A stretch of DNA of 64,000 bases from the NCBI GenBank assembly GCA_963738405.1, contig CAVTWJ010000018.1, positions 76,294-140,293 on the forward strand, read 5' to 3'. Numbering within the stretch: position 1 is the stretch's first letter; the number at the start of each line of letters is the position of its first letter. The DNA comes from a candidate division FCPU426 bacterium (GTDB taxonomy: Bacteria > Oederibacteriota > Muellerivitia > Muellerivitales > Muellerivitaceae). The position numbers were made by a program, and so were the translations under genes. The notes under the pieces were generated by a model. That model saw only the letters and a list, made by a program, of their open reading frames with translations, ran no database searches and was not told the origin of the DNA. Of the stretch, positions 43,850-62,647 are shown piece by piece.

Positions 43850-43910
43850 TGAATACCTCGAACATCATTTGATTCATGGGTTTGATTACAAACGAGAAGG
43901 GGGTTCTTCG

Positions 43911-45329: not shown

Positions 45330-45391
45330 TATAACCAGAGCGGAAGGTGGAACGGACGAAGAAGGGCCCTTCAGGACAGGGCCCGAGGGAA

Positions 45392-47299
45392 TTATTTATT
45401 GAAAAGGCTGGGGATAAATCCCGTCAGGAAAGGTACGTAAGTGATAAGAAACACCATGGCCACCATTAAGAGGTACATCGGGAGTATGGCCTTGTAAACC
45501 TCGGTCATGGGTTTCTTGAAGCGGTAGGAGGAAAGAAACAGGTTCAACCCCAGGGGCGGGGCCATGAAACCCAGCTCCATATTGCAAAGAAAAACGATAC
45601 CCATGTGCACCGGGTCCACGTGAAAGGCGTCGGCCATGGGAACCAAAAGGGGAACCACCACCACGATGGCGGCGAAAATTTCCAAGAGTCCGCCGATAAA
45701 GATCAACATCACATTGACCATCAAGAGGAAAAGCCATTGTGAATGCACATTGGTCGAAACCCAATCGGCCAGCTTGGCAGGGATCTGGGCATCCACCATG
45801 TCGTTCGTGAACCCGAGGGACACTCCTAAAATGAGGAGAACGCCTCCCACTAAGATGCCGCACTCGGTGATGACAGCAGGGATGTACTTGAGTTTTAGAT
45901 CCCGGTACACGATCACTTCCACCACGAAGGCGTAGAGGGCTGTCAGGGCGGCCGATTCCACCAGGGTCACCTTCACCACAAACAAAAAGATAAATACGAC
46001 CAGGGGAAGAAAGAACTCCCATTTTGCTTTCCAAATGGCATCCCGGGCCTCGGCGAAAACAAACGGATGTTTGCTCGCCTGATCGCTTGAACCCTTGACG
46101 ACTCCGAAAATCGCCGTCATCACGATCAAAAGAAAACCGGGCAAAAGCCCGCCCAAGAAAAGCTTGTCGATGGGAGTGTGGGAGACGACGCCGTAAAGAA
46201 TGACTGGAAGGCTGGGAGGGAAAAGAAGGCCGAGGGAACCGGCGGAAGTCAAAAGACCCAGGGAATTTCGTTCGGTATATTTTTCGGCAATCAGGATGGG
46301 CATCAGAAGCCCGCCCAGGGCCAAAATCGTCACACCCGAGCCCCCAGTGAATGAGGTAAAGAAGGCGCAGACCAGGCAGGTCACGATGGCGGGCCCACCC
46401 TTCATGGAACCGAAAAGGGCTTGGAAGACGCGGAGCAGCCGCTTGGAAGCCCCGCCTTCGGCCAAAAAGTAACCGGTGAGGGTGAAGAGGGGTATGGTGG
46501 GGATCGTTGGGGAAACCACCATGCGGTAGGTTTCAGCCGGGATGGAATCGATGGGGGTATCGGAGTTCCAAAGAAAAATCAGGGCCGCCCCGCCCAAGGC
46601 CACGAAGACCGGTGTGCCCAAAACGACAGCCAATAGCAAAACGGCGAAAGCGATATAAAGGAAAGTTTCCGAGGGGCTGTGCAAAAGAGGCCCCAGGGAG
46701 GCCAGCCCTGCGGCCATGGCGAGGGTGGCCAGGCGCATGTACCAGTGGATGCCGGACCGCCAGATCAACCGGATTAGGATCAACGTGAATCCCAGCGGCA
46801 GGAAAGCCAGGACAATCCACTTGGGAATACCAATGGCGATGATATCGCCCACCTGCTGTTCGATCAGTGCGAAGTTAAAGGAGGCCTTAGCCAGGTAAAG
46901 GGTAATGGCGGCCCCGAAGGCCGAGGTCATGACCCGGGTAAAGGCCTTGTACTTGTCGGGGATCATGCTGGAGGTGGAGGAGAGTGCAAGCAATTTACCC
47001 TCACGCGCGGCGATGGCCCCGCCGAACATCATAATGGCCAAAACAGTGTGCTGGACCAGGGTGAGGGAACCCGGGACCAGGGTGATGGGAACAAACTGAA
47101 AAAAGCCGTGCAGTTTCCGCCCCAAAATGTCCAGCAGGGGCAGGATCATCATGAAGGCGAAAAAGAAAGTCAGAAGCAGGTTTTCGGCGGGGTGCCAGAA
47201 AGCCTTTTGAACCGGGGGCTCGCCCGGATGATCTTCCACCGCTAAAACGGACCCCGGTTCGGGAAGCTCTATATTTTCCGGGTTTTCGATCGAACTCAT
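45392..47299 (-). CDS. TRAP transporter fused small/large permease (DctQ-DctM fusion)
   Basis: It is 635 aa and polytopic, with a 4-TM segment followed by a 12-TM segment. Its start overlaps the stop of the upstream substrate-binding-protein gene. Confidence 0.8.
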   Translation of the reverse strand: MSSIENPENIELPEPGSVLAVEDHPGEPPVQKAFWHPAENLLLTFFFAFMMILPLLDILGRKLHGFFQFVPITLVPGSLTLVQHTVLAIMMFGGAIAAREGKLLALSSTSSMIPDKYKAFTRVMTSAFGAAITLYLAKASFNFALIEQQVGDIIAIGIPKWIVLAFLPLGFTLILIRLIWRSGIHWYMRLATLAMAAGLASLGPLLHSPSETFLYIAFAVLLLAVVLGTPVFVALGGAALIFLWNSDTPIDSIPAETYRMVVSPTIPTIPLFTLTGYFLAEGGASKRLLRVFQALFGSMKGGPAIVTCLVCAFFTSFTGGSGVTILALGGLLMPILIAEKYTERNSLGLLTSAGSLGLLFPPSLPVILYGVVSHTPIDKLFLGGLLPGFLLIVMTAIFGVVKGSSDQASKHPFVFAEARDAIWKAKWEFFLPLVVFIFLFVVKVTLVESAALTALYAFVVEVIVYRDLKLKYIPAVITECGILVGGVLLILGVSLGFTNDMVDAQIPAKLADWVSTNVHSQWLFLLMVNVMLIFIGGLLEIFAAIVVVVPLLVPMADAFHVDPVHMGIVFLCNMELGFMAPPLGLNLFLSSYRFKKPMTEVYKAILPMYLLMVAMVFLITYVPFLTGFIPSLFNK

Positions 47300-48348
47300 T
47301 CCGCCTTGGCCGCCTTGGCCCGGTACTCATCCCGGTACTTGATGGCCATATCCATAATATCCGTCGGGATGATGGTTCCTGAGATCTGGGGATAGACACT
47401 CTGAAAGAGTTTTTCCCACTGGTCGTATTGATCTTCCGTGATGTCGTGGACCTGAAGCCCATACTTCTTCATGCTTTCAATGGCCTTGTCGTTGCTAATG
47501 CGGATGTCGTCCCGGAAGGACTTGCCAGCGACGGCTGCGGCCTTCAAAACCGCGGGCCGGGCGGAAACGGGAATCTTGTCCCAGCCTTCCTTGGTGATGA
47601 TGGTAGCGCCCACCAGCGGGCACCATTTCATGTTGGTCATGTGTTTGGCCAGGGCGAACCACTGGAAGGAAAGGGCGGCGACCGGGGTGGTGTCGAAACA
47701 GTTGATCATGCCGGTTTGAAGATTGGGCAGGATGTCGGTTGCGGACAGGGGGATGGGGGAAAAACCGGCGGATTTCCAGATATTCATGGTGTCAGCATCG
47801 TCTCCCCAAATGAAGAACTTCATTTTTTTCAAGTCGTCGGGAATCAGGATGGGGGTTTTGCCGAAGAAATAAACCCAACCCGCCTCGCCCCAGTTCAACA
47901 CCTTGAAACCCTTGGCTTCCAGGCGTTTTTCCAGGATGGGCTGCATCTTGGCGCGGACGTAATCGCTTTCTTTGTAATTTTTGTACAACATGGGAATGGA
48001 AAGCACTTCCACGGCCTTGTCGATCGCGGAAAGCCCCACCACCGTGAAGACGCCTACTTGAAGCTGGTGGATGCGCAGTTTGCTGACCATGTCGGGCTCG
48101 TCGCCCAAAACACCTCCAGGGTAGATCTGCAATTTCACCCCGGACTTAAGCCAGGAGTTGCCCATGTCGTCCAGGATGTTATAGAAAGGCGAATGGTCGG
48201 GGGCCAGGGTACCCAGTTTCAAGGTAACGGCGGCATTCTGCGCGCGGGCGGAAAGGGGCAACAAGGTTGTTCCCAATGCGACCAAAATTAAACTTATGCG
48301 TCGTAGGGTCTTCATGAAATTTCCTTTTACTGCTTTCTTTAGAATCAC
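47296..48348 (-). CDS. TRAP transporter substrate-binding protein (DctP/TatP-like)
   Basis: It has a signal peptide (MKTLRRISLILVALGTTLLPLSARA) and the DctP fold length. An upstream GTG start at 48348 overlaps the TatT-like stop as GTGA, and ATG 48315 is an alternative start. Confidence 0.75.
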   Translation of the reverse strand: MILKKAVKGNFMKTLRRISLILVALGTTLLPLSARAQNAAVTLKLGTLAPDHSPFYNILDDMGNSWLKSGVKLQIYPGGVLGDEPDMVSKLRIHQLQVGVFTVVGLSAIDKAVEVLSIPMLYKNYKESDYVRAKMQPILEKRLEAKGFKVLNWGEAGWVYFFGKTPILIPDDLKKMKFFIWGDDADTMNIWKSAGFSPIPLSATDILPNLQTGMINCFDTTPVAALSFQWFALAKHMTNMKWCPLVGATIITKEGWDKIPVSARPAVLKAAAVAGKSFRDDIRISNDKAIESMKKYGLQVHDITEDQYDQWEKLFQSVYPQISGTIIPTDIMDMAIKYRDEYRAKAAKAE

Positions 48349-49265
48349 AAGAACAGCTTGTCTTCGTTCGCCAAGAGCCAGCGGGCTCTGTCCTGCATCA
48401 GCAAATTGACGAGGCGGGAACTGGGTTCCTGATCCGCATCAATGGCCAAGGCTTTGTTCAGCATTTCCTCAAACTCGGCCTTGTTTTGTTGTTTCTCGTC
48501 CACAGCCTCCGCGTAATTGATGTAAGTGGAAGCGTGCAACCCTTTGTTCAGCACCAGGGCCCGGTCGAAATGCTCTTTTGCTTTCACCACCGAACCACCC
48601 ATCATGGCGGGTTTGCCGCCTTCATAGGTGATCAGGAAATCATGGATGGCGCCCTCATCGTAATCGGGGTTCAATTCGTAGGCGCGATAGAGTAGGGCCT
48701 CGGCCTGGGGCTCCTCGGCCATACGGTCGTTGTCGTCCTTGTCGATCACAATGGCTCCCAGCCAAGAAGCGGCGGTCCAGTAAAGAAGTTCCACGTCGTC
48801 CTTGTCGGCCTTGGCGACCGTTCCCTTGGGGTCCAGTTTCAGCATTTCGCTGAACTTGTCGTGACGGGCGTCCAAGCCCCTTAAACCGTAGCCCTGGGCC
48901 CGCAGGTAAAGGTTCTTGGCGCGGTGGGTCCAGACTTTCTTTTTTTCGTACTGGGCGTCTTCCATCTTCTCCTCGTCCGATTGGACGAAGGCATAGGCGT
49001 ATTCGGTAAAGCCTTTGGCGAGGGCGGTCAAAAGGCCCACGTGGCGGGGAGTTGCGGAAAGCACGCTTTCCATCAGCTTCAAGCTGAAAGGAACGGCTTC
49101 CCGGATGAGTTGCGGGTCGTTATCTGAGCTAAAGGTGTCGCCCGTGCCCGCCAAGCTGTCCGCGATGGAATCCACCGCCATGGATTTCAGAAAGCAACCA
49201 TGCAGGGATAAGCCCAATCCCAATAAAAGGACAAGAAGTAGAACTATTCGTATCGTGGAACTCAA
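48345..49265 (-). CDS. TatT-like TPR/helical lipoprotein associated with TRAP transporters (TPAT accessory protein)
   Basis: It has a signal peptide with a Cys (LSLHGC) and an all-helical repeat sequence. It is the first gene of the three-gene TRAP operon. Confidence 0.5.
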   Translation of the reverse strand: MSSTIRIVLLLVLLLGLGLSLHGCFLKSMAVDSIADSLAGTGDTFSSDNDPQLIREAVPFSLKLMESVLSATPRHVGLLTALAKGFTEYAYAFVQSDEEKMEDAQYEKKKVWTHRAKNLYLRAQGYGLRGLDARHDKFSEMLKLDPKGTVAKADKDDVELLYWTAASWLGAIVIDKDDNDRMAEEPQAEALLYRAYELNPDYDEGAIHDFLITYEGGKPAMMGGSVVKAKEHFDRALVLNKGLHASTYINYAEAVDEKQQNKAEFEEMLNKALAIDADQEPSSRLVNLLMQDRARWLLANEDKLFL

Positions 49266-49410
49266 AAAAACCTCCTAAAAAAGAGGGCCCATGTGGGCTC
49301 GTAAAACGGCTTATCGTTTTACCGTTAGACGGTTGAGGTGTCAATGACGGCCTTAGCTATAAGAAAACAGTAGAATTATAGGGTTTTCGGGCTAAAGGGG
49401 CCTTAGAAAA

Positions 49411-49443
49411 TAAAAAAAGCGGATCTAGGGGATCCGCTTTTTG
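49411..49443. terminator. bidirectional rho-independent terminator (A-run, hairpin agcggatc-tagg-ggatccgct, T-run)
   Basis: A perfect 9-bp GC-rich stem is flanked by poly-A on one side and poly-T on the other. It lies 3' of the minus-strand gene 49469..49927. Confidence 0.6.
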
Positions 49444-49468
49444 AACCTATCGGGACGACAAAAACAGG

Positions 49469-49927
49469 TTAATTTGCCGCCGGGGACGTTGAGGCGTCAG
49501 GCGTCGCTGAAGCGCCGCTATCGGTCGAACCTTCCGCCTTCTGGTCGTGGATGGCGGTGGAATTATCGTCCAACTCCTGGTTCAGCTGTTTGGATTGGTC
49601 CGAGGTTAGTTTCCCATCGCCGTTGGCCTTGATGTCGCTTTGCATTTCTTCCCGGATGGATTTGACCTTGGCATGGAGTGCCTTGGCCTCGTCCTTAGTC
49701 AATTTCTTGTTCTTGACCCCGGCCTTAATGCGCATGTTTTGCTCCTCAAACCGGCCATGAAGTTCTTTAATCATGGGGTGGTTTCCTTTTCCCATAGGGC
49801 TCATGGGGGTGGCTTCGGCGGAGGGGGCGGTAGCAGCGGCAGGAGTCGAGGTATCGTTTTGGGCAAGCAGGATCCCGGCGGCACCGGCGAACAACAAAGC
49901 GGACGTCAACGACAGAATTTTTTTCAT
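49469..49927 (-). CDS. periplasmic Spy/CpxP/ZraP-like protein (LTxxQ motif family)
   Basis: It has a signal peptide (MKKILSLTSALLFAGAAGILLAQ), LTxxQ-type motifs (KLTKDEAKAL, KLTSDQSKQL), and a Lys-rich helical sequence. Confidence 0.45.
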   Translation of the reverse strand: MKKILSLTSALLFAGAAGILLAQNDTSTPAAATAPSAEATPMSPMGKGNHPMIKELHGRFEEQNMRIKAGVKNKKLTKDEAKALHAKVKSIREEMQSDIKANGDGKLTSDQSKQLNQELDDNSTAIHDQKAEGSTDSGASATPDASTSPAAN

Positions 49928-50036
49928 GGGTACATCCTCCAAAAAGTTTGTGCCTCTCAACATGGATTGGACGGGGAAAGAAGCGAAAAAGTTCAAGGAG
50001 TCAGGAACAGGAATGTTAAATCTTGAGGTGGGAACA

Positions 50037-50078
50037 ATAAAAAAGGGGCCCGATCATTGACCGGGCCCCTTTTGAAAA
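50037..50078. terminator. bidirectional rho-independent terminator (hairpin ggggcccg ... cgggcccc flanked by A and T runs)
   Basis: An 8-bp GC stem sits directly 3' of the minus-strand small gene 50087..50323. Confidence 0.55.
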
Positions 50079-50086
50079 ATTTGAAA

Positions 50087-50323
50087 TTACTTGCTGGGTG
50101 CGGTGCTGGTAGTGGTATCCGTGGTGCTGGAGGCGCTGCTGGCAGAAGCGCTCTTCTTGTGTTTTTTGTGGCCCTTAGACTTGTGGCTCTTGTGAACTTT
50201 CGGGGGAGCCGAACCCGTCGTGTCTTGCGCCATCACTAAACCGGATGTAACGGCCAAGAAGGCAACCGCCAAAGACAACACAATCAACTTTTTCATTGAA
50301 ATCCTCCTCAAAGTTTTAAACAA
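50087..50323 (-). CDS. small secreted His/Lys-rich protein
   Basis: It has a signal peptide (MKKLIVLSLAVAFLAVTSGLVMAQ) and then an HKSHKSKGHKKHKK stretch. It is monocistronic between two terminators. Confidence 0.35.
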   Translation of the reverse strand: MFKTLRRISMKKLIVLSLAVAFLAVTSGLVMAQDTTGSAPPKVHKSHKSKGHKKHKKSASASSASSTTDTTTSTAPSK

Positions 50324-50450
50324 GCAGGCTTATCCTACCCAAGTTAGACGAAAAGAAGCTTTTAAATGTTTCGCGATTTGATAAGGCCTTCGGACGATAT
50401 TTGTCATTCGTTTTCCCTCTGTTAAAAAGCGTTTTTCAACCTTGTTATTT

Positions 50451-50466
50451 TACCGACCGGTCAGTA
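50451..50466. promoter_or_regulatory. imperfect 16-bp palindrome TACCGACCGGTCAGTA (core GACCGGTC), a candidate operator for the TetR gene
   Basis: It ends 11 nt upstream of the probable ATG (50478) of the TetR-family gene. TetR regulators commonly autoregulate through such palindromes. Confidence 0.3.
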
Positions 50467-50477
50467 GGTTATTGCCC

Positions 50478-51092
50478 ATGGTCAAAATTTTAAACGAAAT
50501 AAAACACGCGGATCAAAAAAAGCGCTTTGTCGCCCAGGCGAGAAAGCTCTTCGCCTCCAAGGGCGTCATGGAAACCAGCATGTCCCAAATCGCCCGGGCC
50601 TGCAAGGTCACCAAGCCGGCGCTTTACCATTACTTCAAAAGTAAGGACGCGATCCTCAAGGAAATATTTCTTTCCCATGTGGTCGAAAAAAAGGAAACCA
50701 TCGCCCAATTGTTAAGCCGGGCGAAAAACCTCGAAGAATCCCTCTACATCATCGGCAAGTACCATCTGCAGGACATGGCCCGGCCGGACCATTTCGAGCT
50801 TTTGAAAATCCTCTTGAGCGAAACCATGAAGAACGCTGAGATGAGAAAGTTCTACCTGCGGTTCATCACCGAGCAAATTCAAACGGTGGTTCAGGAAATT
50901 CTCATCCCCAGGGTTCCCCATCCGAAGGGAGAGAAGGAAACCCGCATGCTCTTTTTTCAGTTTTTCGCCTGCATCCTCCATTACTCCTGGCACCAGATGA
51001 TGGTGGGAGATATCACGCCTCTGATCGGCGATTCGGAAGTTTTCATCCGCACCCTCTCCCAAACCTATGCCCGGGAGCTTCAGAGAGCGTAA
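50478..51092 (+). CDS. TetR-family transcriptional regulator
   Basis: It has an N-terminal helix-turn-helix (GVMETSMSQIARACKVTKPALYHYFKSKD). The track ORF starts at an upstream TTG (50442). Confidence 0.8.
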   Translation: MVKILNEIKHADQKKRFVAQARKLFASKGVMETSMSQIARACKVTKPALYHYFKSKDAILKEIFLSHVVEKKETIAQLLSRAKNLEESLYIIGKYHLQDMARPDHFELLKILLSETMKNAEMRKFYLRFITEQIQTVVQEILIPRVPHPKGEKETRMLFFQFFACILHYSWHQMMVGDITPLIGDSEVFIRTLSQTYARELQRA

Positions 51093-51141
51093 TTATTTTT
51101 CAACTCGATAGACAAAAGGCGAGCGCAAAGGATCTTTCTTC

Positions 51142-51708
51142 ATGAAAGAGGTCGAGGCCCAACCCATGCAAGTTTTTCGGCAGGAGGAGGATTTTCAGGC
51201 TTTCGTATACGAACACCGAAGCCTGTGGCTTCGCCTGGCCTACCGTGTGCTGGAAAACAGGGAGGAAGCGGAGGATACGGTCCAGGAAACCTTGGCGATC
51301 CTCTGGGAAAAACGCCATGACCTGGAAGTAGAAAATCCGGCCGCCTATGCCGCGCGATCGGTTTGGCTGAATTCCATCAAGAGACGCAGCCGCAAAAAGC
51401 CGCAGATTCCGCTGGAGGAGATCGCGGAACTCCAAGCCCCGGAGGAAGAGGGCCCCGGGGAAGGACTGGGTGATCTGGATCCGCTGGAACTGGAAGAAGC
51501 CCTCATGGAATTGCCGGAAGCCCAGCGGACGGTAATCCGGATGAAATATTACATGGGTCTTTCTTTCCGGGAAATCGGGGAGGCCTTGCAGATTTCGTTG
51601 AATACCGCCGGCAGCCGCTGCCGGTACGCGCTGGAGACCCTTCGGGAATTGTTGACGCCCGACGATAACCCTCAAGAGCCGAAAAAAAAGTTGGAGGAAG
51701 CCTTATGA
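51142..51708 (+). CDS. ECF-subfamily RNA polymerase sigma-70 factor
   Basis: It has region 2 (EEAEDTVQETLAILW) and region 4 (YMGLSFREIGEALQISLNTAGSRCRYALETL). Confidence 0.85.
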   Translation: MKEVEAQPMQVFRQEEDFQAFVYEHRSLWLRLAYRVLENREEAEDTVQETLAILWEKRHDLEVENPAAYAARSVWLNSIKRRSRKKPQIPLEEIAELQAPEEEGPGEGLGDLDPLELEEALMELPEAQRTVIRMKYYMGLSFREIGEALQISLNTAGSRCRYALETLRELLTPDDNPQEPKKKLEEAL

Positions 51709-52100
51709 ACGAAGAACCGAAAGAAAACGAAAAAGTGCAGGCGAATGTCCAGTTCCGGACCGGGGGCAACACCATCGCGGTGGCGGGTATCTTGGGGGGA
51801 GCCGGCATCGCCCTGGGCCTGCCGCTCATCGTACTGGTTTACGGCCAATCCCTGGGCGCCACCCTTTTGACCGTCTTTGTGATCGCGTCCCTTTTAATCG
51901 GCGGGACCGTGGCCCTGGCCTCGGCTGTCTTAGGGCTCGTCATTCCCCAGCAAGTGAACGGGGCCGGGCACGGCCCTTGGGGGCGCCGGGCTTTCAAACA
52001 TTGGGCCAGGCGCCATTGGTGCGATCAGCCCGAGGGCGACTGGAAAAACTGGACTGAAGAGCAATGGATCGCCTGGGCGGACAAGAAAAAAGAAGAATAA
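51705..52100 (+). CDS. membrane protein, candidate anti-sigma factor
   Basis: Its start overlaps the sigma-factor stop (ATGA). It has two or three transmembrane helices (Gly/Ala/Leu-rich) and a Trp-rich C-terminal tail. Confidence 0.4.
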   Translation: MNEEPKENEKVQANVQFRTGGNTIAVAGILGGAGIALGLPLIVLVYGQSLGATLLTVFVIASLLIGGTVALASAVLGLVIPQQVNGAGHGPWGRRAFKHWARRHWCDQPEGDWKNWTEEQWIAWADKKKEE

Positions 52101-52140: not shown

Positions 52141-53133
52141 ATGAAAAAAACATTTCTATTGGGATTGGGTCTTTGGCTCGCGGCCGGCTTAAGCCTCGCC
52201 CAGCAAAAACTGTCACTGGAGAATTATCTTCAACAGGTCCAGCAACAAGGCCCGGACTTCCAGGCCTCCAGCGCGGCGGCGGAAGGCTACGAGAAACAAT
52301 CCCACCAGCAGGACCTGGTCTATTCGCCCCAATTAGTGGCCTCCTACAACCACATGGATGACCAGTCCCAGCAATCAACGGTTTTGGCCACCACCCAAAC
52401 CCTGGCCGACTCGGCGGGCCTGTCCATTGTGGACAAATTACCCTTCGGGCCATCAGTGGCGGTGGGTTACGCTTTCAACGACATCAACCTGACCTACGCT
52501 CCCCAGCTGGTTAATTTTTTCGGAGGCAACAGTTCCGCCTTCTTAAATTCTTACTATCAAATCAGCCCTGTGGTCTCCCTGTCAGTCCCCCTCTTCAAGG
52601 ATTTCGGAGGCGCCCAAACCAATGCCGGGGTGAAGGCCGTCCAGTACGGCTTGGAATCGGCGCAAAAACTTTCGGCCTTCCAGCGCGAAGGCGTCCTCTA
52701 TAACGCCAAGGTCGCCTATTGGAACCTGGCCCTCACCCGGGAAGAAGTGGATATCCGCCAAGACACCCTGGACCGCAGCCAAAAGATATGGGACTGGACC
52801 AAACGCCGGGTCGCGCGCAACCTGGCCGACCCCCCGGATGCCCTGCAGGCCGAGGCCTCGGTGCGGGAAGCAGAGCTTGATTTACAAACCGCCGAAAACC
52901 GCGAGCGCTCTGCCCGGCTGGCCTTTAACCGTTTCCGCAACGGCGCCACCGAGGATGTGCCCGAACAGCTGGAGGCCCTGGAAGATTCGCTGACCCTGGT
53001 GAAGGTGGATTTTCCCGCCGACTTACCCCAGCGCATCGACCTTCAGGCTGTGGAGGCCCAAACCCGCCCAGTGTTCCTGCTGGGTGAGGCCAGGCTTATT
53101 CGCTGGCATCAGGAGAGCGGCGGCCGACACTAA
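52141..53133 (+). CDS. TolC/OEP-family outer-membrane efflux protein, apparently C-terminally truncated at the compositional breakpoint
   Basis: It has a signal peptide (MKKTFLLGLGLWLAAGLSLAQQ) and OEP-type coiled-coil/beta repeats. Only about 330 aa are present against about 450 expected. The ORF ends where GC content and gene content change. Confidence 0.55.
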   Translation: MKKTFLLGLGLWLAAGLSLAQQKLSLENYLQQVQQQGPDFQASSAAAEGYEKQSHQQDLVYSPQLVASYNHMDDQSQQSTVLATTQTLADSAGLSIVDKLPFGPSVAVGYAFNDINLTYAPQLVNFFGGNSSAFLNSYYQISPVVSLSVPLFKDFGGAQTNAGVKAVQYGLESAQKLSAFQREGVLYNAKVAYWNLALTREEVDIRQDTLDRSQKIWDWTKRRVARNLADPPDALQAEASVREAELDLQTAENRERSARLAFNRFRNGATEDVPEQLEALEDSLTLVKVDFPADLPQRIDLQAVEAQTRPVFLLGEARLIRWHQESGGRH

Positions 53134-53176
53134 ATGGACAAGGAGGCTTAAATGGCCCGAACGCTCACCTTGGTAG

Positions 53177-54115
53177 GTGGCGATATTGGTTGCGCTGACT
53201 GTTCCCTTCGCGATTTTGCAGTCCACCACGCAGCCGAAACCGCCGCCCACGCCGATCCGCGTTGTCGATCTACCGATCGCTAATTTCACGCCGCTCCTGG
53301 TCGCCCGCGACAAAGGCTACTTTGCCAACGAAAATCTCTCGGTGACCTGGACACCGGTCGCACAGGGTGCCGTCGCCATAGAAGCGGTATTCGGCGGCAG
53401 CGCCGAGATCGGCGCCAGCGCGATCTATGAGACGATCGTGGCGCGCGGCAACGGTTTTGACCTCATGTTTCTCGCGCCCGGCGTCCATATTAATAACCAG
53501 CCGCCTGACAATTCGGCGCTGCTCGTGCGCACCGACGGCTCGGTGAAAGGCGCCGCCGACCTGGTCGGCAAGAAGGTTTCGGTCGGGCTGATCAACAGCG
53601 TCAATTACGTGCACATGCTGGAATGGCTGGAAAAGCACGGCGTCGATCCAAAACGCGTCGAATTTCTGGAGATTCCGTTTCCGCAAATGGCCGACGCGCT
53701 GTTACAGAAGCGCCTGGAAGCGGTCTGGAACGTCGAGCCGTTCGTCACCTTCATGACGCAGAGCGGCAAAGCGAAGGTTTTGGCCTATCCTTACCTCGAG
53801 ACGATCCCGGGCATGGACATTGCCAACTACTTTGCCAAGGAGAGCTGGATCAAGGCGCATCCGGAACTCGCGCGCGGTTTCAGGCGCGCCATCGACCACG
53901 CGACCAGCGACGTCGCCGCAATGTCGAAGGATGAACGCGACGGCTGGGTATCGAAATTCACCGGCATGAAGCTTGGCGTGGTCAAGAACGTCACCCTGCC
54001 GGTGTTCTCGACCGCGTACAATGTCCCCAGCCTCCAGGCCAATCTCGAGCTTGCGCTCAAGCACAAGATGATCAACAGGTCGTTCGACGTCAACACGATG
54101 ATCTGGAAACCGTAG
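53177..54115 (+). CDS. ABC-transporter substrate-binding protein, NMT1/SsuA/TauA-like (high-GC segment)
   Basis: It has the SsuA-like start of the mature protein (PIRVVDLPIANFTPLLVARDKGYF) and the NMT1 fold. The N-terminal signal region lies at the junction and is uncertain. Confidence 0.65.
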   Translation: MAILVALTVPFAILQSTTQPKPPPTPIRVVDLPIANFTPLLVARDKGYFANENLSVTWTPVAQGAVAIEAVFGGSAEIGASAIYETIVARGNGFDLMFLAPGVHINNQPPDNSALLVRTDGSVKGAADLVGKKVSVGLINSVNYVHMLEWLEKHGVDPKRVEFLEIPFPQMADALLQKRLEAVWNVEPFVTFMTQSGKAKVLAYPYLETIPGMDIANYFAKESWIKAHPELARGFRRAIDHATSDVAAMSKDERDGWVSKFTGMKLGVVKNVTLPVFSTAYNVPSLQANLELALKHKMINRSFDVNTMIWKP

Positions 54116-54137
54116 GAGGCGGACATGTTGCGGACAC

Positions 54138-54794
54138 TTGCCGAGAAGGTCGCAGCCGGAACACTGCGCGCTCCTGATCGTCGACGTGCAGAACGACTTC
54201 TGCGCCGAAGGCGGGGCCATGCATCGCGAGGGGCGTGACTTGACGCTGGTCAAGGCGATGGTGCCGCGCCTTGCAGCGTTCGTGGACGCGGCACGGGCGG
54301 CTGGCGTTCCGCTGATCTGGATCCGCAATGTCTACAACACCGGGCCGAACTGGTACCTGTCGGAGGTTTGGCTCGAACAGGCACACCGCCGCCGGCGTGG
54401 CGCTTATCTGTCGATTCCGGTTTGCGAGCCGGAACAGTGGAACGGCGATTTCTTCCAGATCAGGCCGATTGCTGATGAAGCGATCGTGACCAAGCACCGC
54501 TACGGCGCATTCGAATCCAGCGATCTCGACCTGGTGCTGCGCTCACGTGGCATACGCACCGTGGTCATGACCGGGGTCGCGACGAATGTCTGCGTCGAAA
54601 CCACGGCCCGGCAGGCGTTCCTGCGTGACTATTACGTCGTCTTCACCAGCGACTGCACGGCGACCTACAGCCAGGCCGAGCATGATGCGACACTGCACAA
54701 CATCAATTCGTTCTTCGGCGCTGTCGTTAGCTCCGAGGAAGTGCGCGCCTGCTGGCCGCTGCCGAGCATTCGCCTGCGCGCGGCTGCTGGTTAG
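54138..54794 (+). CDS. isochorismatase-family cysteine hydrolase (N-terminus possibly frameshifted)
   Basis: It has ALLIVDVQNDF and VVMTGVATNVCVETTAR motifs. An ATG at 54125 is in another frame, suggesting an indel near 54165. Confidence 0.65.
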   Translation: MPRRSQPEHCALLIVDVQNDFCAEGGAMHREGRDLTLVKAMVPRLAAFVDAARAAGVPLIWIRNVYNTGPNWYLSEVWLEQAHRRRRGAYLSIPVCEPEQWNGDFFQIRPIADEAIVTKHRYGAFESSDLDLVLRSRGIRTVVMTGVATNVCVETTARQAFLRDYYVVFTSDCTATYSQAEHDATLHNINSFFGAVVSSEEVRACWPLPSIRLRAAAG

Positions 54795-54824
54795 CGGGCG
54801 AGCCGCACCCTGCCGGGACAATCC

Positions 54825-56600
54825 ATGACACAAAGACCGCGTATTGCCCATTTCGCCGGGCCAAACGCCACCATCCAGAACAGCCCGCCACTCGTCACCA
54901 GCAACAAGGCGCGGAAGCAATACGGTCTGCCGCTCGGCACCAATCCGGACGGTACGCCGGCGCGTTTCGACGTGCTGCGTCCGCAGCGCCTCGCCGCGCC
55001 GGTGACGGTCTACGTCGAGCAGTTCAGCGCCCATCCGCTCGAGCGCGACGCCGCCGAGCTTTATGGTCCGCCTGACGGCTATGTCGACGCGGACGGTCGC
55101 TTCCACAAGGAGCGGCAGCGCCCGAAGGACAAGCCAGTCTATGAGATCGTGCTGTCGCCGGAGGACGGGCTCTATCCGCTCCCCTACATGGCGCGGCAGG
55201 CCGATCGGCACCGCCTGGGAGGAGGACATGCGCGACGCCCGGCGCGCCGGAGGAACGCGCGCGCCAAGCCGTTCTATCCCGACGGCTCGCGCATCTTCGA
55301 GGAGATCGACCGGCTGGGCATCGGCGAAAACGGTCTCGGCAATCTCATCGCCGCGCGCGCCGACGGTCGATTTCTACCGCGTGCTTCCGCCGGGCGGCTA
55401 TACCAAGGGCCTGCCGCCGGCGAACGCACCGATATCGGCGACGGGCGACATCCCGCCCGGAACGGCGCGGCCGCGACTTCTTTCCCTACCGGCCGCGTCA
55501 CCTCGATTCCACGAGCCGCGGCTTGGCCTCGCGCGCATCGCCAACGGGGTGCAGCGAGGTCCTCGTCGAGCGGACAATATCAGGGCGGCATCTGGTCGCA
55601 GGGCAGTCCGCGCATCGAGGAGACGATCTATTGGCTCACCTCTGCTCGAATCACCGTGCCGGTCTGCGGCAACTCGGCGCAGCGCCCGCACGGCCAGGTG
55701 AGCGAGGACGGCTCCAAGAACCTGACCGATTCCGTCGACTACATCGCCTCCCGCGTCTGGGCTGACGAGGCGGGCGCAATCGCGCCGGTGCGGTCCTCAT
55801 CCAGGAGCAGCAGATCTTCGCTGCACGCGACGTGCAGAAAGGCGATGCACGGCCGGGCGGATACTCACGACCGGCGGACACGGCGGCATCATCGGCGCGG
55901 TCGGCTATGACGGGCCGCCGCGGCTCACCTACCTGCCCCACACGTTGCACAGCTATCTGTCGGAAGTGAATATTTCGCGGCTGCCGGACAAGACGGTCGG
56001 CGTGCGCAGCGACGGCGCGAAGGCAAACCCCGTTGAGGTGCCTATCAAGGACGGCGCCGGCAAGCTGCTCGACGGCGCCATCCCCAAGGTCGTGATCGTC
56101 AAGGACGGTACCTACGATAGTGACGATTTCGACGTCGATCTCAATCGCGAGATCGATCTCTTGGCGCGCATGGAGCACAATCTGCGGCACGCGCCACTCG
56201 CAGGCTTCATCGTCGAAGGTCTTTCGCCTTACGGCATCATGACCTCGGTAGCGCGGCACCGGCTGATGCTGCGCGCGGTGCATCGCGGCATGCCGGTCGT
56301 GCGCGTCGGCCGCGGCAACAACGCCGGCTTCACGCCGCGGCGCGACCGAATGATCGGCGGGGGCAATCTCACCGCCACCAAAGCCCGCCTGCTGCTGATG
56401 GCCTGTCTGATGAAGTTCGGCGGCTTGCCGCCGGCGGCCGATCCCGATCATCCGACCGAGGCCGAAGCGGCCGCCATCCGCAACAAGGTCTCGGCTTATC
56501 AGGCGTGTTCGATACGCACTGACGCGTTCCAGCAGCAATCCGCGGCGGCCCGCAGGCAAGCTTCGCTTGGCCGCCTGCCGTCCGATGCTATAAGCGACGA
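54825..56600 (+). pseudogene. L-asparaginase-family gene disrupted by apparent frameshifts
   Basis: The C-terminal domain is recognisable in ORF 55945..56835 (GMPVVRVGRGNNAGFTP ... TATKARLLLMACL). The N-terminal part is in ORF 54825.., and the middle is unreadable in any single frame. Confidence 0.45.
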
Positions 56601-56628
56601 TCGAATCCGCCCACTTAAGAGGAAAAGC

Positions 56629-57636
56629 ATGCCGATCGACGTGCACGCGCATTACGTGCCCAACCGGCTCATCGACACGCTGGAGGAGCATGCTCGGGAG
56701 TACGGTGTTTCGCTGATCAAAACACCGCCGCAATGCGCGCTGCATTTCCACTACGGGCTGAAAATCCGTCCGTTTTTTCCCAAGCTCGTCGAGGCGTCGA
56801 TCAGCGGCTCGCCGGAATGGCCGCGCAGGGCGTGACCTGCCAGGTGCTCTCGGTATGGCCTGACATTTTCGCCTATGGATTGCCGGCGCGGATTGCGGTG
56901 CGCTGGCACCGGCTCTTGAACGAAACTCTATCCGATCTGTGCGCCAAGCATCCGGGCCAATTCGCGTTGTTCGCGTCCGTGCCGCTACCGGACGCGGCTG
57001 CCGCGGCGCGCGAGGCCGAATACACCATGAAGCAGCTCGGCGCCGCGGGTCTTGTGGTCGCCACCAACGTCGAGGGCACCAATCTCGGCGAGATTGCGCT
57101 CGATGAGTTCTGGGACGCAGCAGTCAAACTCGATGCGCCGGTATTCATGCATCCGGTGCAGGCAATGCCAACTCCGCGCATCGCCAAATTCGCTCTGGTG
57201 CAGATCGCGCAATACACGTTCGACACGACGCTTTGTGTCGGCTCACTGATTTTTTCTGGCGTCCTTGATCGCTTCCCTGACCCTGCGCCTGATCCTGTCG
57301 CATGGCGGCGGCGCATTTCCCTATTTGCTTGGCCGCTTCGACTGCATGCACGCGCGCATGGACCGTGCGGCACAAGCCGATGTTGCCGTTTCAACCCCGT
57401 CGGCTTACGTCCAGCGCTTTCACTACGACACGGTTCTGCATAATCCCATGCAGTTGCGCTGGCTCGCCGAGGCCGTGAGCGTCGACCGCATCGTTTTGGG
57501 CAGCGACTATTCGTTCCCGCCCGCCGATCTCGACCCGATCGCGACAGTGCGCATGGCGGGCTTTGCCGACGCGGATGTGGCAAAAATCCTCGACCAGAAC
57601 GCGCTCAAGCTGATGCCGCGGCTGCGAACAGCGTGA
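56629..57636 (+). pseudogene. amidohydrolase-2 (ACMSD-like) family gene with two apparent frameshifts
   Basis: MPIDVHAHYVP at the start and a C-terminal LGSDYSFPP motif are in different frames (ORFs 55945.., 56733.., 57265..). Together they reconstruct one gene of about 335 aa. Confidence 0.55.
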
Positions 57637-57698
57637 ACGCGCGGGACAGAGACAATAGTTGGCCGCGCGGCCGGTGCGGATCCCGGAATCAACCTGCT

Positions 57699-58865
57699 TC
57701 AGAGCAGGAAATCCTGGCTCTCAAGACCGAACATGACGGCACCCCAGTTAGCGCCGTAATGCTCATATTGATTGGAGACATGCTGGCGTGCGGCCAACAG
57801 GTCATTGAGTATTCTGCCGAAAGGCAAATCTTCGGATAGGCCCGCGGCCCCGGTCGCCTTGAAGATTCGCGCCGCGAGAAGCGTACAGCGCTCAATCACC
57901 GCGCTCGATTGAAACTTGAATTGCAGCCGTAATTCGAGCGGCGGCGCCTCATCACGCTGCGCATAGTCATGCAGCGTGCAGCAATTGCGATGCAGCGTCT
58001 GCCGCATCTCATCGAGCGCCGCCGCCGTCTCGGCGCAGAGCAGCTGGATGGTGGGATTTTGTGATGAGAGGCCGCCGGCCCGAGAGGCCCGGCCGCGGCT
58101 ATGCGCGATGAGCGCCGTGAGCATGGCCTGCAGCGCGCCGAGGCCGGCGGTGGAAACGCCGCGCACGAAGATCTGCCCAAACGGCAAACGGTAGAGGCTA
58201 GACGGATTGGCCGCTTGACCGGCACCTTTAAGCCGAAAATTGTCCTGCAGGCGTTGCGCGCGATAGTGCGGAACGAAAACGTCCTCGACAACCACATCGA
58301 TGCTTCCCGTGCCCTGAAGACCTGCGACCTGCCAGTTGTCGACGGTCCGATAGTCCTGACGCGGCACAACGAAGAAATACCAATCGGGCGGCGCATTGCC
58401 GGCATGCACCATGCCGCCGAGCAAGGCCCAACCGCTGTGCTCGCAGGCGCTGGCGTAGCGCCAATGACCGGTGAGACGGAACCCGCCGTCGACCGCGGTC
58501 GCCTTGCCCGCCGGCATCGTGGAAGAGCAGATCAGCGTCTCGGTATCCTGGCCCCAAACTTCTTGCGCGACGCGGTCGTCGATCAGGCCCAGAAACCAAC
58601 TGACGACCCCAAGCACGCCGTAACCCCATCCCGCAGACATATCGCCTTCGCCCAGCGCCATCTCGATGTCGTAGAAGGTATTGAGGTCCATCTCGTAGCC
58701 GCCCCAGCGCTTCGGCTGCAGCACGCGAAAGAACCCCGCCGCCTGCATCTCGGCGATGGTCTCGGGTAGGATTCCTCGCCTGCTTTTTTGCTCGATGGAA
58801 CGCCCGGCGAGCGCTGGAATCATCGATCGGGCGGCTGCAACCAGCTCTGCCGGGTCAGGTGTCAT
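57699..58865 (-). CDS. acyl-CoA dehydrogenase-fold flavin-dependent oxygenase/dehydrogenase (intact)
   Basis: It is 388 aa with an ACAD-like fold (WGGYEMDL ..., C-terminal four-helix region). There are no frame breaks. Confidence 0.65.
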   Translation of the reverse strand: MTPDPAELVAAARSMIPALAGRSIEQKSRRGILPETIAEMQAAGFFRVLQPKRWGGYEMDLNTFYDIEMALGEGDMSAGWGYGVLGVVSWFLGLIDDRVAQEVWGQDTETLICSSTMPAGKATAVDGGFRLTGHWRYASACEHSGWALLGGMVHAGNAPPDWYFFVVPRQDYRTVDNWQVAGLQGTGSIDVVVEDVFVPHYRAQRLQDNFRLKGAGQAANPSSLYRLPFGQIFVRGVSTAGLGALQAMLTALIAHSRGRASRAGGLSSQNPTIQLLCAETAAALDEMRQTLHRNCCTLHDYAQRDEAPPLELRLQFKFQSSAVIERCTLLAARIFKATGAAGLSEDLPFGRILNDLLAARQHVSNQYEHYGANWGAVMFGLESQDFLL

Positions 58866-59331
58866 TTTTTGAATGGGGTCGGACCTTCATCCGGCCTTCC
58901 ATGTACGCTTGAGAGGATCGTGGTCAGGATAGCGTTGACGCCGCCCGACACGCAATTCACTTGGCCCGCGAAGTCGGGACCGAAGCAAATCTTCCCCGCC
59001 GTAATTATAAGCACTCTGAACTGTCGAGCCCCAGGCGTTTGGACATACGCAGAATGTCCGGCGCTGCCTAGGAGCCGATCGGAGGAACATTATGGCAGGC
59101 GTATGCTCGGTCCGGTTGAAGCGCCCCGGCCTCCGATGCGGCTAGGAACGCCGAGCGCCTTTCGCGAATCATAATCCGCGACCCACATCGAGCCCTTCCG
59201 GCCATTCGGGCAGGCCTTGCCGATACGTTTGCGCTTGGGAGGCCTGCGCATCGAGAGGAGCGTGGCGCGAGGCTTCGGGAATAGAATAATATCCAACGAA
59301 AATCCGTCCGACTAACTGGGAGGCGGCCAAT

Positions 59332-60308
59332 ATGATGAGGGTCCTACTTACGGCACTGCTGTGCGCCGGATGGGCGTTGCACAGCGCCAGTCCAGCGAAC
59401 GCGCAGGCCTATCAGACCAAGGAGCCGATCAAAGTCATCGTCCCCTTCCCGCCGGGCGGCCCGACCGACGGCATGGCGCGCATCATCTCCGAAAAACTCG
59501 GCGCTATCCTGGGCCAGACCATCGTCATCGAGAATCGCGGTGGCGCCGGCGGCGGCATCGGCGGCAAGTTCGTCGCGGAGTCCGCCTCCCGGTGGCTACA
59601 CCATCCTGATGACGCCGGGCGGCGCGCTCACGACCGGGCCCATCATCAATCCCAACATCGGCTACGATCCGGTCAAGGTATTCGCTTCGGTGTGCGAGCT
59701 GATCGAGACGCCGCTAATCGTCTCGGTCAATCCGAGCCTGCCGGTAACGTCGATGGCCGAGATCGTAGCTTACGCCAAGGCGAATCCCGGCAAGATCAAA
59801 TGGGGCTCGCAGGGTTTCGGCACCGCGCCGCATCTGCTCGCCGAAATGTTCAAGCTCGAAGCCAACGTCAACGTCCTCCACGTGCCGTATCGCGGAACAG
59901 CGCCGACGCTGAACGCGATTCTGGCCAATGAGGTACAGATGGTTGCCGATCCCGCCACCACGAGCCTGCCTTATATCCAGGATGGCAAGCTGCACGCCAT
60001 CGCCATCGCGGGCGATACCCGCGATCCGAAATTGCCCGATGTGCCGATCGTCGGCGAGGAAGGCTTCCCCAAGCTCCTGTCGCCCTTCTGGCTCGCCGTC
60101 GTGGCGCCGGCCGGAACCCCGCATGATGTCATCGCAAAGCTCAACGGGCATTCCGTCAGGCTTTGCCGCACCGGAGACGCGCTCGCGGCTCGACGCGCTT
60201 GACGCACAGAGCAAGGTCGGCAGCCCCGAGGATCTCGACAAGATGCTGGCCGCGGAACGTGCGCGCTGGAGCGAGGTCGTCAAGGCGGCCAACATTAAGA
60301 TGGAATGA
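59332..60308 (+). pseudogene. Bug/TctC-family tripartite tricarboxylate transporter substrate-binding protein with two apparent one-base frameshifts
   Basis: It has a signal peptide and PFPPGGPTDGMARI in frame 1. It continues as PPGGYTILMTPGG... in frame 2 from about 59,585, and the C-terminal RSRLDALDAQ...ANIKME is in a third frame. Confidence 0.6.
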
Positions 60309-60379
60309 CGCGCGCACGCCTGGCTTTGCCGAAGCCGGTTTGCGCTTTTGTTCATGCTCAGCAGTGAGAGTTCCCCGCC

Positions 60380-61531: not shown

Positions 61532-61552
61532 CGAGACCCGCAGTCGATCGAC

Positions 61553-62647
61553 ATGGACCTGCATCTCACATCGGAGCAAAGCCTGCTGCGCGACAGCGCC
61601 GCCAAATTTGCCGCGGCTGCGGGGCCCAAGGTGGCCCGTGCACTACGCGAACAGAATCCGAGTTCTCGCGGCCCAGGTTGCAGCAAGCCGGCGAGCTCGG
61701 ATGGCTTGGGATTCTCGTCCCGGATGCGGCGAATGGCCTTGGTTTGGGCCTTACCGAATTGGCCTTGGTGCTTGAACAAGCCGGTCGCGGCCTGATCTGC
61801 GAGCCAATCGGGCTTGCGGCCATATCGGCTGCGATGCTTGCGCTGGCGCCCACTCCTCATCCGAAGCTACAACAGGTGCTGGAGGGCGACTGGCTTGTCG
61901 TGCCGGCCCTGCAGGAGACCGCGCAGGGCGACGACCCGCTTGTGCCGCGCACCCAAGCCGCAGGCCGCGACGGAGCGGTTCGCCTGACCGGGCCAAAAAG
62001 TATTTGTGTGTGCCGACGGCGCCGATGGTTTTCTGGTCAGCGCCAGCGGGCGCGATGGACTTGTGCTCGGCCATGTAGCGCGCAACGCGCCCGGCTGCAC
62101 CTTGACGACGACGCAGACTGTGGAGGGCCGCAAGCTTGCGACCTTGAGCCTTGCAGATACGCCGGCGGATTTCATCCCGCCGCATCCGTCATCGCCCAAT
62201 GCGGTAGAGTCGCTGCATCATCTCACGCTGTTCGCGCTCGCCGCTGAACTGCTTGGCGTGATGGAAAAGGCGCAGGAGATCACGTTCGACTACCTGCGCC
62301 TCCGTAAGCAGTTCGGCAAGCCAATCGGCAGCTTTCAGGCGCTGCAGCATCAGGCGGTCAACACTTACATCAGGACCGAGGCGACACGCTCGCTGGTCTT
62401 TCAGGTCGCGGCCAACAACGAGGCCTATCGCATCGATCCCGCATTGGCCATCGCCATGAAAGCGAAAGCGTCGGAGGACGCCATGTTTGTGACCGAGGCC
62501 TGCATCCAGCTGCACGGCGCCATCGGCTTCACCGACGAGCACGACATCGGGCTTTATCTCAAGCGGGCCATGCTGCTGTCGTCGCTGTCAGGCAACGCGG
62601 CGGCCCAGCGGCGCCGCTATGTGAAAATAGCCGAGCTGGCGCTATAG
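61553..62647 (+). pseudogene. acyl-CoA dehydrogenase family gene with apparent frameshifts
   Basis: The ACAD C-terminal domain (GKPIGSFQALQHQAVNTY ... IQLHGAIGFTDEHDIGLYLKRA) is in ORF 62006... The N-terminal and middle parts are in ORFs 61553.. and 61678.., in other frames. Confidence 0.55.

Follow-up and report, generated by a model that had tools for sequence, protein, structure and literature searches.

A very probable artefactual join of candidate division FCPU426 and Xanthobacteraceae DNA inside a TolC gene of a public metagenomic contig

Our analysis of the window (the whole stretch of 64,000 nucleotides studied here) indicates that the contig from which it comes is very probably an artefactual chimera, in which DNA of candidate division FCPU426 (positions 1–53,071) was joined to DNA of a soil alphaproteobacterium of the Xanthobacteraceae, which begins at 53,072 and reaches 64,000 or beyond. 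We favor this explanation because the sides derive from two phyla, the native continuation of each is found elsewhere, both genes at the boundary are cut in the middle of their reading frames, no hallmark of a mobile element is seen, and the error profile of the sequence changes at the join. This points to no new element or mechanism; rather, its value is that of a contamination flag for a public metagenome-assembled genome (MAG), as a public 142-kb contig, apparently binned into the poorly known candidate phylum FCPU426, holds at least 11 kb of alphaproteobacterial DNA.

Position of the join and affinities of its two sides

A preliminary description of this DNA had placed an abrupt compositional and taxonomic breakpoint at 53,070–53,180. 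This breakpoint is real, and homology sets it most likely at 53,071/53,072, within a range of 53,068–53,072: homology to FCPU426 genomes stops at 53,066–53,068, and that to Xanthobacteraceae contigs (L021, L001, and L002) starts at 53,072–53,074. The left block (1–53,071) is FCPU426 genomic DNA with intact genes. It shows blastn synteny with 18 FCPU426 loci (L003–L020; 38.7 kb covered) up to 53,066–53,068, and its housekeeping genes, including those for an AddAB-type helicase-nuclease, the glycine cleavage system, NAD synthase, and tRNA-Val, are syntenic with FCPU426 chromosomes. The right block (53,072–64,000) is Xanthobacteraceae (Alphaproteobacteria) DNA, which, from exactly 53,072, is collinear over all 10.9 kb with the Xanthobacteraceae MAG contig JBAUYV010000228.1 from NCBI (L021). 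Its identity to this contig ranges from 85% to 99.9%, with about 5 kb at 99.6–99.9%. The FCPU426 loci have no match right of 53,068 except for a 24–26%-identical NMT1 paralogue located elsewhere in L018 and L019, and within 11 kb on either side of the join every gene is syntenic with its own taxon. Hence, the taxonomic comparison of each side, which had been proposed earlier, shows on the basis of homology that they belong to different phyla: FCPU426 on the left and Alphaproteobacteria, specifically Xanthobacteraceae, on the right.

Profiling of GC content and tetranucleotides, also proposed earlier, confirmed a compositional step, with GC rising from 0.516 (1–53,071) to 0.633 (53,072–64,000). 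In chunks of 5 kb, the GC content is 0.48–0.54 on the left and 0.63 in both right chunks. For the tetranucleotide profiles, the correlation of the left chunks is 0.90–0.96 with the remaining left sequence and 0.11–0.36 with the right block, that between the two right chunks is 0.946, and that between the left and right profiles as wholes is r = 0.27. The right block displays zero amelioration toward the left composition. At a resolution of 200 nt the change looks gradual, as the final 400 nt of the TolC fragment that ends at the join are already GC-rich (0.62–0.67); thus, from composition alone the change can be narrowed down no further than to about 52.7–53.3 kb. This apparent gradient would also suit a locus native to FCPU426, with an unusual composition or a naturally short TolC and neither foreign DNA nor a join. 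We regard such a locus as extremely improbable, given that identity to Xanthobacteraceae DNA reaches 99.9% on the right side, that the FCPU426 loci offer only the above-mentioned distant paralogue as a match to it, and that the TolC gene itself, as laid out below, differs at its end from all its full-length homologs.

The two genes cut at the join

The gene on the left of the join is the 5′ fragment of a TolC/OEP outer-membrane factor (52,141–53,071, + strand), which, as delineated by Pfam OEP, alignment, and tblastn, retains codons 1 to ~310 of ~485. The ORF in which it lies (52,141–53,133) codes for 330 aa, only about 310 of which are TolC. While a complete TolC/OEP protein of about 450–490 aa has two tandem repeats, the Pfam OEP profile matched a single repeat here, at residues 40–276. 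The TolC homologs are 475–495 aa long, with all of the more than 90 full-length versions at about 480–490 aa, and the sole entry of 330 aa among them is the window's own gene call (P0001). Alignment of the window's protein with P0072 and P0002–P0012 diverges past ‘…AVEAQTR(Q)’, and in a tblastn search with residues 1–312 of the 483-aa TolC from L004 the match ends at 53,067. At ~53,068 the relatives read CGN CAR and the window reads CGC C CAG, suggesting that the TolC fragment probably carries one extra C at this point. P0072, a TolC from the same species, is 100% identical to residues 145–309 of the window's protein, except for its own GTG-encoded first residue, and passes uninterrupted through the breakpoint into a normal C-terminal half.

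A TolC of ~480 aa is present in all 18 FCPU426 relatives, and in all 18 an AcrB pump gene lies downstream of it, as part of an RND efflux operon with the gene order TetR–ECF sigma–anti-sigma–TolC–AcrB. AcrB follows within about 20–170 nt in 16 of them; in L004 it comes after two FMN_red genes, and in L013 it is about 3 kb away. The first ~310 residues of the window's version are those of a bona fide ortholog of this operonic TolC (77–81% identity), with the same upstream neighbors; however, where the relatives have a second OEP repeat and then AcrB, the window has unrelated DNA. As no AcrB gene is found in the window, the conserved TolC–AcrB operon is severed at the join. The earlier proposal that TolC is truncated at the boundary is therefore borne out, and the search for a full-length ortholog in related genomes, meant as a test for a naturally short TolC, returned proteins of 480–490 aa. 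A naturally short version was rejected, since all the relatives are full-length and the final 20 codons of the window's ORF come from an ABC permease.

This permease is the gene on the right of the join. It is of the NitT/TauT type (BPD_transp_1), with only its last 20 codons and stop codon remaining (53,072–53,133, + strand), and 61 of these 62 nt are identical to L021. The remnant is in frame with the TolC fragment, and its translation, FLLGEARLIRWHQESGGRH followed by the stop, matches the C-termini of the 261-aa permeases from L021 and L002. In three independent assemblies (L021, L001, and L002) the full permease gene and that for an ATPase are found upstream of the SsuA gene. Judged from these alignments, the 330-aa ‘TolC’ joins 310 codons of TolC to the 20 terminal codons of an ABC permease unrelated to it and, as such, is biologically meaningless. 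The permease is the truly 5′-truncated gene, which the preliminary description had overlooked; it had instead taken the next gene, coding for the SsuA-like protein, to lack its 5′ end. That gene has an ATG at 53,152, preceded by its own RBS (AAGGAGG, 53,140–46), and is affected by a frameshift at 53,179/80 rather than by truncation.

Gene content and indels of the right block

The content reported earlier for the right block, namely NMT1/SsuA, TctC, Amidohydro_2, three acyl-CoA dehydrogenases, crotonase, and thiolase, was recovered along with an isochorismatase and a 565-aa asparaginase-domain gene; the frameshifts in most of these genes had been overlooked. All but one lie on the + strand. 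The NMT1/SsuA-type substrate-binding protein gene (53,152–54,115) is complete, with a 1-nt insertion: the extra G at 53,179/80, absent in P0106 and L021, shifts the frame such that MARTLTLVG is encoded in one frame and the remainder in the next. It is followed by an isochorismatase-family hydrolase (54,125–54,794; Pfam Isochorismatase 1–175/175), whose first ~10 codons are displaced by a 1-nt insertion at 54,154. The asparaginase-domain gene (54,825–56,522), intact with 565 aa in L021, carries 14 indels, with fragmentary Asparaginase and Asparaginase_C matches split over different ORFs; at the DNA level it forms a single continuous match to a Rhizobium ‘asparaginase domain-containing protein’. 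The Amidohydrolase_2 gene (56,629–57,636) has two frameshifts (56,794 and 57,280), with Pfam profile positions 65–171 and 170–286 in two frames and a 346-aa ORF from L002 matching three frames in tblastn.

Further to the right, an acyl-CoA dehydrogenase-family gene on the − strand (57,699–58,865) is intact: it shows one mismatch in 1,167 nt relative to L021, and its product is 100% identical to a protein from a Xanthobacteraceae bacterium MAG (P0221, MGA8613072.1). The Bug/TctC-family binding protein gene (59,332–60,308), 99.7% identical to L021 in DNA, contains three frameshifts from single-nt indels, with Pfam profile positions 2–38 and 36–223 in two frames. Of the two acyl-CoA dehydrogenase genes that follow, the first (60,380–61,531) is intact, with complete N, M, and C Pfam domains, 99.0% identity to L021, and no indels, and the second (61,553–62,647; 99.6%) has two indels, which place the N- and C-domains in different frames. 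The enoyl-CoA hydratase (crotonase) gene (62,732–63,514), intact with 261 aa in L021, has nine indels and a fragmentary ECH_1 match. Finally, the 5′ part of a thiolase gene (63,538–64,000), collinear with the 389-aa Thiolase of L021 at 94.6% identity and with no indels, leaves the window.

Overall, we found 33 indels in the right block relative to L021 (29 of 1 nt, 4 of 2 nt, and none a multiple of 3), i.e., about 3 per kb over 10.9 kb, and these break 7 of the 10 genes. When compared with two references, 28 of the 33 are specific to the window. The substitutions relative to L021 fall at codon position 3 in 70–76% of cases, which is the pattern of functional genes under selection. In contrast, no frameshift was found in the left 53 kb by comparison of gene lengths with relatives, completeness of Pfam domains, and ORF lengths. 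Here, each of the 11 genes in the interval 41,984–52,100 has the full length seen in the relatives, neighboring ORFs that looked suspect all hold a whole Pfam domain of their own, and the mean ORF length is 319 aa. A frameshift screen based on tblastn with stop-to-stop ORFs produced many antisense-shadow false positives on both sides and was replaced by gene-by-gene length comparison and direct alignment to L021.

The homopolymer bias of the 1-nt indels is weak, with most cases between the window and L001 at a run length of 1; accordingly, the indels look like low-coverage consensus noise and not like classic homopolymer error. They are also not enriched at GANTC (CcrM) sites, where only 2 of the 33 are found, and a Nanopore methylation artefact at these sites was rejected on this count. 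A low-coverage Nanopore consensus likewise shows 1–2-nt indels that break ORFs in sequence whose identity to an intact reference reaches 99.9%; unlike classic residual Nanopore errors, those in the window, for which we infer the platform, are not concentrated in homopolymers. Assembly with metaFlye and a single round of Medaka leaves indels at low coverage. The same kind of indel damage is seen in the related ENA contig L001, and the genomes of the closest FCPU426 relatives were assembled with metaFlye from Nanopore reads only and polished with one Medaka round, which is the pipeline of the Microflora Danica MAGs (PMC12313526).

Origin of the join and its consequences

The preliminary description had left open whether the boundary marks a chimera or a genomic island. 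The chimeric join is supported by the two taxa, their native continuations, the cut genes, and the jump in errors, and the island is not supported. The sides belong to different organisms, and in independent assemblies each has its native continuation beyond the breakpoint (P0072 and the 18 relatives for the left; L021, L001, and L002 for the right). This corresponds to inter-genome chimeric contigs, in which two blocks with different phylum-level best matches and composition meet at a sharp boundary and continue differently elsewhere. Tools of the GUNC type are designed to flag such chimerism in metagenome assemblies and MAGs. While misassemblies are usually called from a coverage step or clipped reads, the join here was set to one nucleotide, inside two genes, by homology alone. 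It likely arose from a chimeric long read or a mis-join during long-read metagenome assembly. An abundant FCPU426 bacterium would have supplied many reads and thereby a clean consensus on the left; a much rarer Xanthobacteraceae bacterium, represented by a small number of reads that may stem from more than one strain, would have left 1–2-nt errors on the right. We infer both the low coverage of the right block and the step that created the join. A single chimeric read may not explain the long tail, as the right block measures at least 10.9 kb, and a low-coverage island in a minority strain would give the same error profile.

The boundary does resemble that of a genomic island in its abrupt GC and oligonucleotide shift, its change in taxonomic affinity, and its disrupted gene, and the right block deviates in composition from the presumed host, as islands do; such deviation is equally expected under a chimera. 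Unlike in an island, integration machinery and its signatures are absent. The genes that Pfam detected are restricted to efflux and regulation left of the join and to transport and catabolism right of it, with no integrase or transposase, and no IS was seen; no tRNA lies at the join, the only one in the window being at 20,715–20,791; and the junction has no meaningful flanking repeats, att-like repeat, or target-site duplication. What is joined is ordinary chromosomal catabolic DNA cut mid-gene. Moreover, only one boundary is in view, as the window ends, at 64,000, while still within the right block, and an intact copy of the recipient gene is known from the same species.

A genuine and very recent inter-phylum transfer, in which illegitimate recombination placed at least 11 kb of a Xanthobacteraceae chromosome within the TolC gene of an FCPU426 bacterium, therefore appears unlikely. 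The presence of both sequences on one contig, the sharp change in composition and taxonomy, the in-frame join, and a possible microhomology of a few bases (CGCC) between TolC and the permease would all fit it, and its indels might reflect either a minority sub-population with low coverage or decay into pseudogenes. Against it stand the missing mobile-element signatures, the cutting of both partners mid-gene, the severed operon, the uninterrupted same-species TolC, and the 99.6–99.9% identity over about 5 kb with zero amelioration. Between 57.6 and 62.6 kb, about 6 indels accompany only about 20 mismatches to L021, nearly all of them at third positions, which is not the spectrum of pseudogene decay. 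Junction 24- and 25-mers, with and without the suspected extra C, had no exact match in JGI metagenome contigs, which is weak evidence, as these contigs may not include the species at all. The left-side proteins that were looked up have identical sequences on the 142-kb contig only. A capture of this kind present in a minority of the population, hence with a poor consensus, is in our estimate quite improbable; if the join were real, the segment would bring in two binding proteins, one of the ABC type and one TctC, along with a β-oxidation-like gene set.

It is very unlikely that a single genome underwent a real rearrangement or deletion, in which case the contig would be Xanthobacteraceae-like along its entire length or a plasmid that both taxa share. 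Nothing specific favors this scenario beyond distant homologs of some right-side genes on proteobacterial megaplasmids. Searches of plasmid collections at the DNA and protein levels yielded just such distant matches, of single genes at 45–70% identity, which agree with a proteobacterial affinity but support no plasmid origin, and the left 53 kb carries housekeeping genes in the order of FCPU426 chromosomes. We also considered an 18-nt imperfect inverted repeat over the junction (53,065–53,082/54,153–54,170) as a clue to foldback or template switching; it is probably due to chance, because its partner arm includes an indel specific to the window and shows lower complementarity in L021.

Returning to the chimera, a face-value reading of the contig would ascribe to FCPU426 a catabolism based on acyl-CoA dehydrogenase, crotonase, and thiolase and uptake of the TctC/SsuA type, along with a shortened ‘TolC’ and a spectacular transfer between phyla. 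A jump in the rate of consensus indels, combined with third-position-biased substitutions, can expose such a join without reads. With the contig read at face value, frameshifted pseudo-proteins would likewise enter the protein databases, where P0001 and P0101 are already present.

Position of the breakpoint

The GC content of the window is 0.516 over positions 1-53,071 and 0.633 over 53,072-64,000, with all ten left 5-kb chunks at 0.48-0.54 and both right chunks at 0.63. Correlations of strand-symmetrised tetranucleotide profiles between 5-kb chunks placed each left chunk at 0.90-0.96 with the remaining left side versus 0.11-0.36 with the right, and the two right chunks at 0.946 with each other. 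Thus, the compositional change near 53.1 kb reported in the preliminary description is real. Since GC already reaches 0.62-0.67 in the final ~400 nt of the TolC fragment, composition alone places the switch only within ~52.7-53.3 kb, and we took the exact position from homology. Homology to candidate division FCPU426 stops at 53,066-53,068 and that to Xanthobacteraceae (Hyphomicrobiales, Alphaproteobacteria, FCPU426 being a separate candidate phylum) starts at 53,072. The window has CGC-C-CAG where the relatives, and also P0072, a same-species TolC from another contig, have Arg-Gln (CGN-CAR in the relatives). On the simplest reading, TolC would extend through CAG (53,069-71) with one extra C, putting the join at 53,071/53,072. 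With the join there, the 330-aa ORF is a fusion of ~310 TolC codons and 20 permease codons, its being in frame amounting to a 1-in-3 coincidence.

The junction is without any mark of an integration site: there is no tRNA at it (the sole one in the window is a tRNA-Val at 20.7 kb), no direct or inverted repeats of note flank it, and a Pfam search found no integrase or transposase domains among the neighbouring genes. One arm (53065-53082) of an imperfect 18-nt inverted repeat (16/18) lies exactly over the junction, and the other (54153-54170) holds a window-specific 1-nt insertion (54,154). The position of the first arm could be read as a foldback or template-switch origin of the junction; chance is more probable, and the repeat is probably just that.

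The FCPU426 side and the severed TolC locus

The TolC ORF (52,141-53,133, forward strand) gives a single Pfam OEP match, and its homologues are 475-495 aa long. It tracks them as far as '...RIDLQAVEAQTR' and diverges completely beyond. P0072, on a 374,579-bp NCBI/ENA contig, is identical to it from residue 145 to the divergence point, except for its GTG-encoded first residue, and then runs on into an ordinary C-terminal half of TolC. Scanning the GTDB representative genomes yielded 18 loci, mostly labelled candidate division FCPU426, many with 'MFD...bin' names and Flye-style contig names. By blastn, they are collinear with window 38.7-53.07 kb, and all alignments end at 53,066-53,068. TolC is ~480 aa long in all 18, and an AcrB-family RND pump gene lies 3' of it in every case (in 16 of them ~20-170 nt away; in L004 after two FMN-reductase genes and in L013 ~3 kb off); there is no AcrB gene anywhere in the 64-kb window. 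All 11 genes in 41,984-52,100 align with their homologues over the whole length and are of similar size. Given this synteny, the full-length neighbours, and the TolC and AcrB of the relatives, the left side is FCPU426 chromosome, with a TetR–ECF sigma–anti-sigma–TolC–AcrB locus severed within TolC. The earlier claim that the TolC-like ORF is cut at the boundary is borne out by P0072 and the 18 full-length relatives; a naturally short TolC is refuted by the length of the homologues and the normal continuation of P0072.

Across the FCPU426 relatives, the same genes precede TolC (49469-52100): one for a small Lys/Ala-rich secreted protein, one for a TetR regulator, one for an ECF sigma factor and one for a membrane protein of 131 aa that matches no Pfam family and is likely an anti-sigma factor; the arrangement suggests sigma-factor-controlled efflux. 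The P0072 gene call starts at the internal GTG of residue 145 and reaches the normal C-terminus, corresponding to window 52573-53071 and beyond. No sequences identical to the sigma and anti-sigma proteins of the window were found on its contig, which may start or break within TolC and be the stretch in which the FCPU426 genome truly carries on. Separately, a gene for a 390-aa TPR-repeat protein (40763-41935, reverse strand) has a GC content of 0.347 within a 0.52-GC genome. At the matching site, L005, an FCPU426 locus, lacks it, having a GcvP homologue, ~70 nt and then the homologue of window 41,984-42,946; a genuine strain-specific insertion is plausible.

The Xanthobacteraceae side

The 388-aa acyl-CoA dehydrogenase at 57,699-58,865 (reverse strand) is 100% identical to MGA8613072.1 ('MAG: acyl-CoA dehydrogenase family protein [Xanthobacteraceae bacterium]'), encoded on JBAUYV010000228.1 of GCA_049584975.1 (50,821 bp; L021). 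This contig holds all right-side genes intact and in identical order: ABC ATPase, ABC permease, SsuA (320 aa), isochorismatase (222 aa), asparaginase-domain protein (565 aa), Amidohydro_2 (335 aa), acyl-CoA dehydrogenase (388 aa), TctC (325 aa), two acyl-CoA dehydrogenases (383 and 364 aa), crotonase (261 aa) and thiolase (389 aa). The proteobacterial-style catabolic set recognised earlier lies in Xanthobacteraceae DNA. Its alignment with the window is a single block from exactly 53,072 to 64,000, and window 53,072-53,133 matches the final 20 codons and stop of its permease (ending ...FLLGEARLIRWHQESSGRH) at 61 of 62 positions. Two further assemblies, L001 (ENA ERZ25039507 contig_22031) and L002 (the 7.2-Mb OY970184.1), share its organisation upstream of SsuA.

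The first gene past the boundary, SsuA/NMT1-type with homologues of ~320 aa, had been thought to lack its 5' end. This loss is an artefact: the true start is an ATG at 53,152, preceded by AAGGAGG at 53,140-46 and reading MARTLTLVG, as does the N-terminus of the homologue P0106, one base out of frame owing to an extra G at 53,179/80.

Identity to L021 is a mosaic, 97.6-99.9% over 56.6-62.6 kb, 85-92% at 53.2-56.5 kb and in the crotonase gene (62.7-63.5 kb), and 94.6% in the terminal thiolase fragment, the differences falling mainly at third codon positions. The pattern points either to recombination between strains of soil Xanthobacteraceae or to a consensus that mixes reads from two or more strains. 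L001 is also damaged, with ~42 indels absent from L021 and gene calls that are broken up or run together, e.g., a 552-aa TctC-ACAD 'fusion'; in L002, the isochorismatase is split across two frames (11123-11632).

Probable consensus errors and the origin of the junction

The key discriminating evidence for the origin of the junction is the error profile. Aligned with L021, the right side differs by 478 mismatches and by 33 indels, 29 of them 1 nt long, four 2 nt long and none a multiple of three; 32 of the indels lie within coding sequence and disrupt seven of the ten genes: asparaginase (14), crotonase (9), TctC (3), Amidohydro_2 and the third acyl-CoA dehydrogenase (2 each), and SsuA and isochorismatase (1 each). 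The breaks are confirmed by Pfam, with successive profile segments of TctC, Amidohydro_2 and acyl-CoA dehydrogenase in differing frames. In the comparison with L001, 28 of the 33 indels were seen again and are therefore window-specific. Third codon positions take 70-76% of substitutions in the divergent genes (SsuA 62/80, isochorismatase 58/82, crotonase 88/116), the pattern of ordinary divergence of functional genes under purifying selection. Over 57.6-62.6 kb there are only ~20 mismatches to L021 yet ~6 single-base indels, and 57,572-59,571 has one mismatch. Such frameshifts in near-identical, selection-shaped genes are best explained as consensus errors.

On the left, ORF lengths, Pfam domains and gene-by-gene length comparison revealed no frameshifts; suspicious adjacent ORFs each hold a complete, separate domain, and the 11 genes closest to the junction are of full length, in keeping with the earlier description of the upstream genes as intact. 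ORFs average 319 aa at 0.98/kb on the left versus 183 aa at 1.65/kb on the right. Thus, consensus quality changes where taxonomy changes. A change of this kind is expected where a long-read assembly crosses from a well-covered genome into a poorly covered one. The closest FCPU426 relatives were assembled from Nanopore reads only, by metaFlye with one Medaka polishing round (PMC12313526), a procedure that leaves indels where coverage is low, and we infer that the window comes from a dataset of this type.

The preliminary description had left open a chimeric join or an acquired island. Taxonomy, cut genes and error profile favour the former: the junction is very probably an artefactual join of the FCPU426 genome with low-coverage Xanthobacteraceae DNA, via a chimeric read or assembler mis-join. 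A genuine transfer between the two phyla in the very recent past, possibly confined to a minority strain, is highly unlikely—it would have left no integration signature of any kind, cut both boundary genes mid-ORF, severed the conserved TolC–AcrB operon, and kept donor-lineage identity of up to 99.9% with zero amelioration, whereas the same-species TolC is uninterrupted and an exact-match search of JGI metagenome contigs, where the species may be missing, found the junction nowhere else.

In all likelihood, then, the junction is a well-known kind of artefact and not a biological feature; the publicly deposited contig ought to be divided at 53,071/53,072, and neither the 'short TolC' nor the right-hand genes should be attributed to FCPU426. 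Public collections (NCBI/ENA) already hold the chimeric 330-aa TolC–permease fusion (52141-53133) as protein P0001, and the N-terminally clipped SsuA call (53185-54115) is likewise a public entry, P0101.
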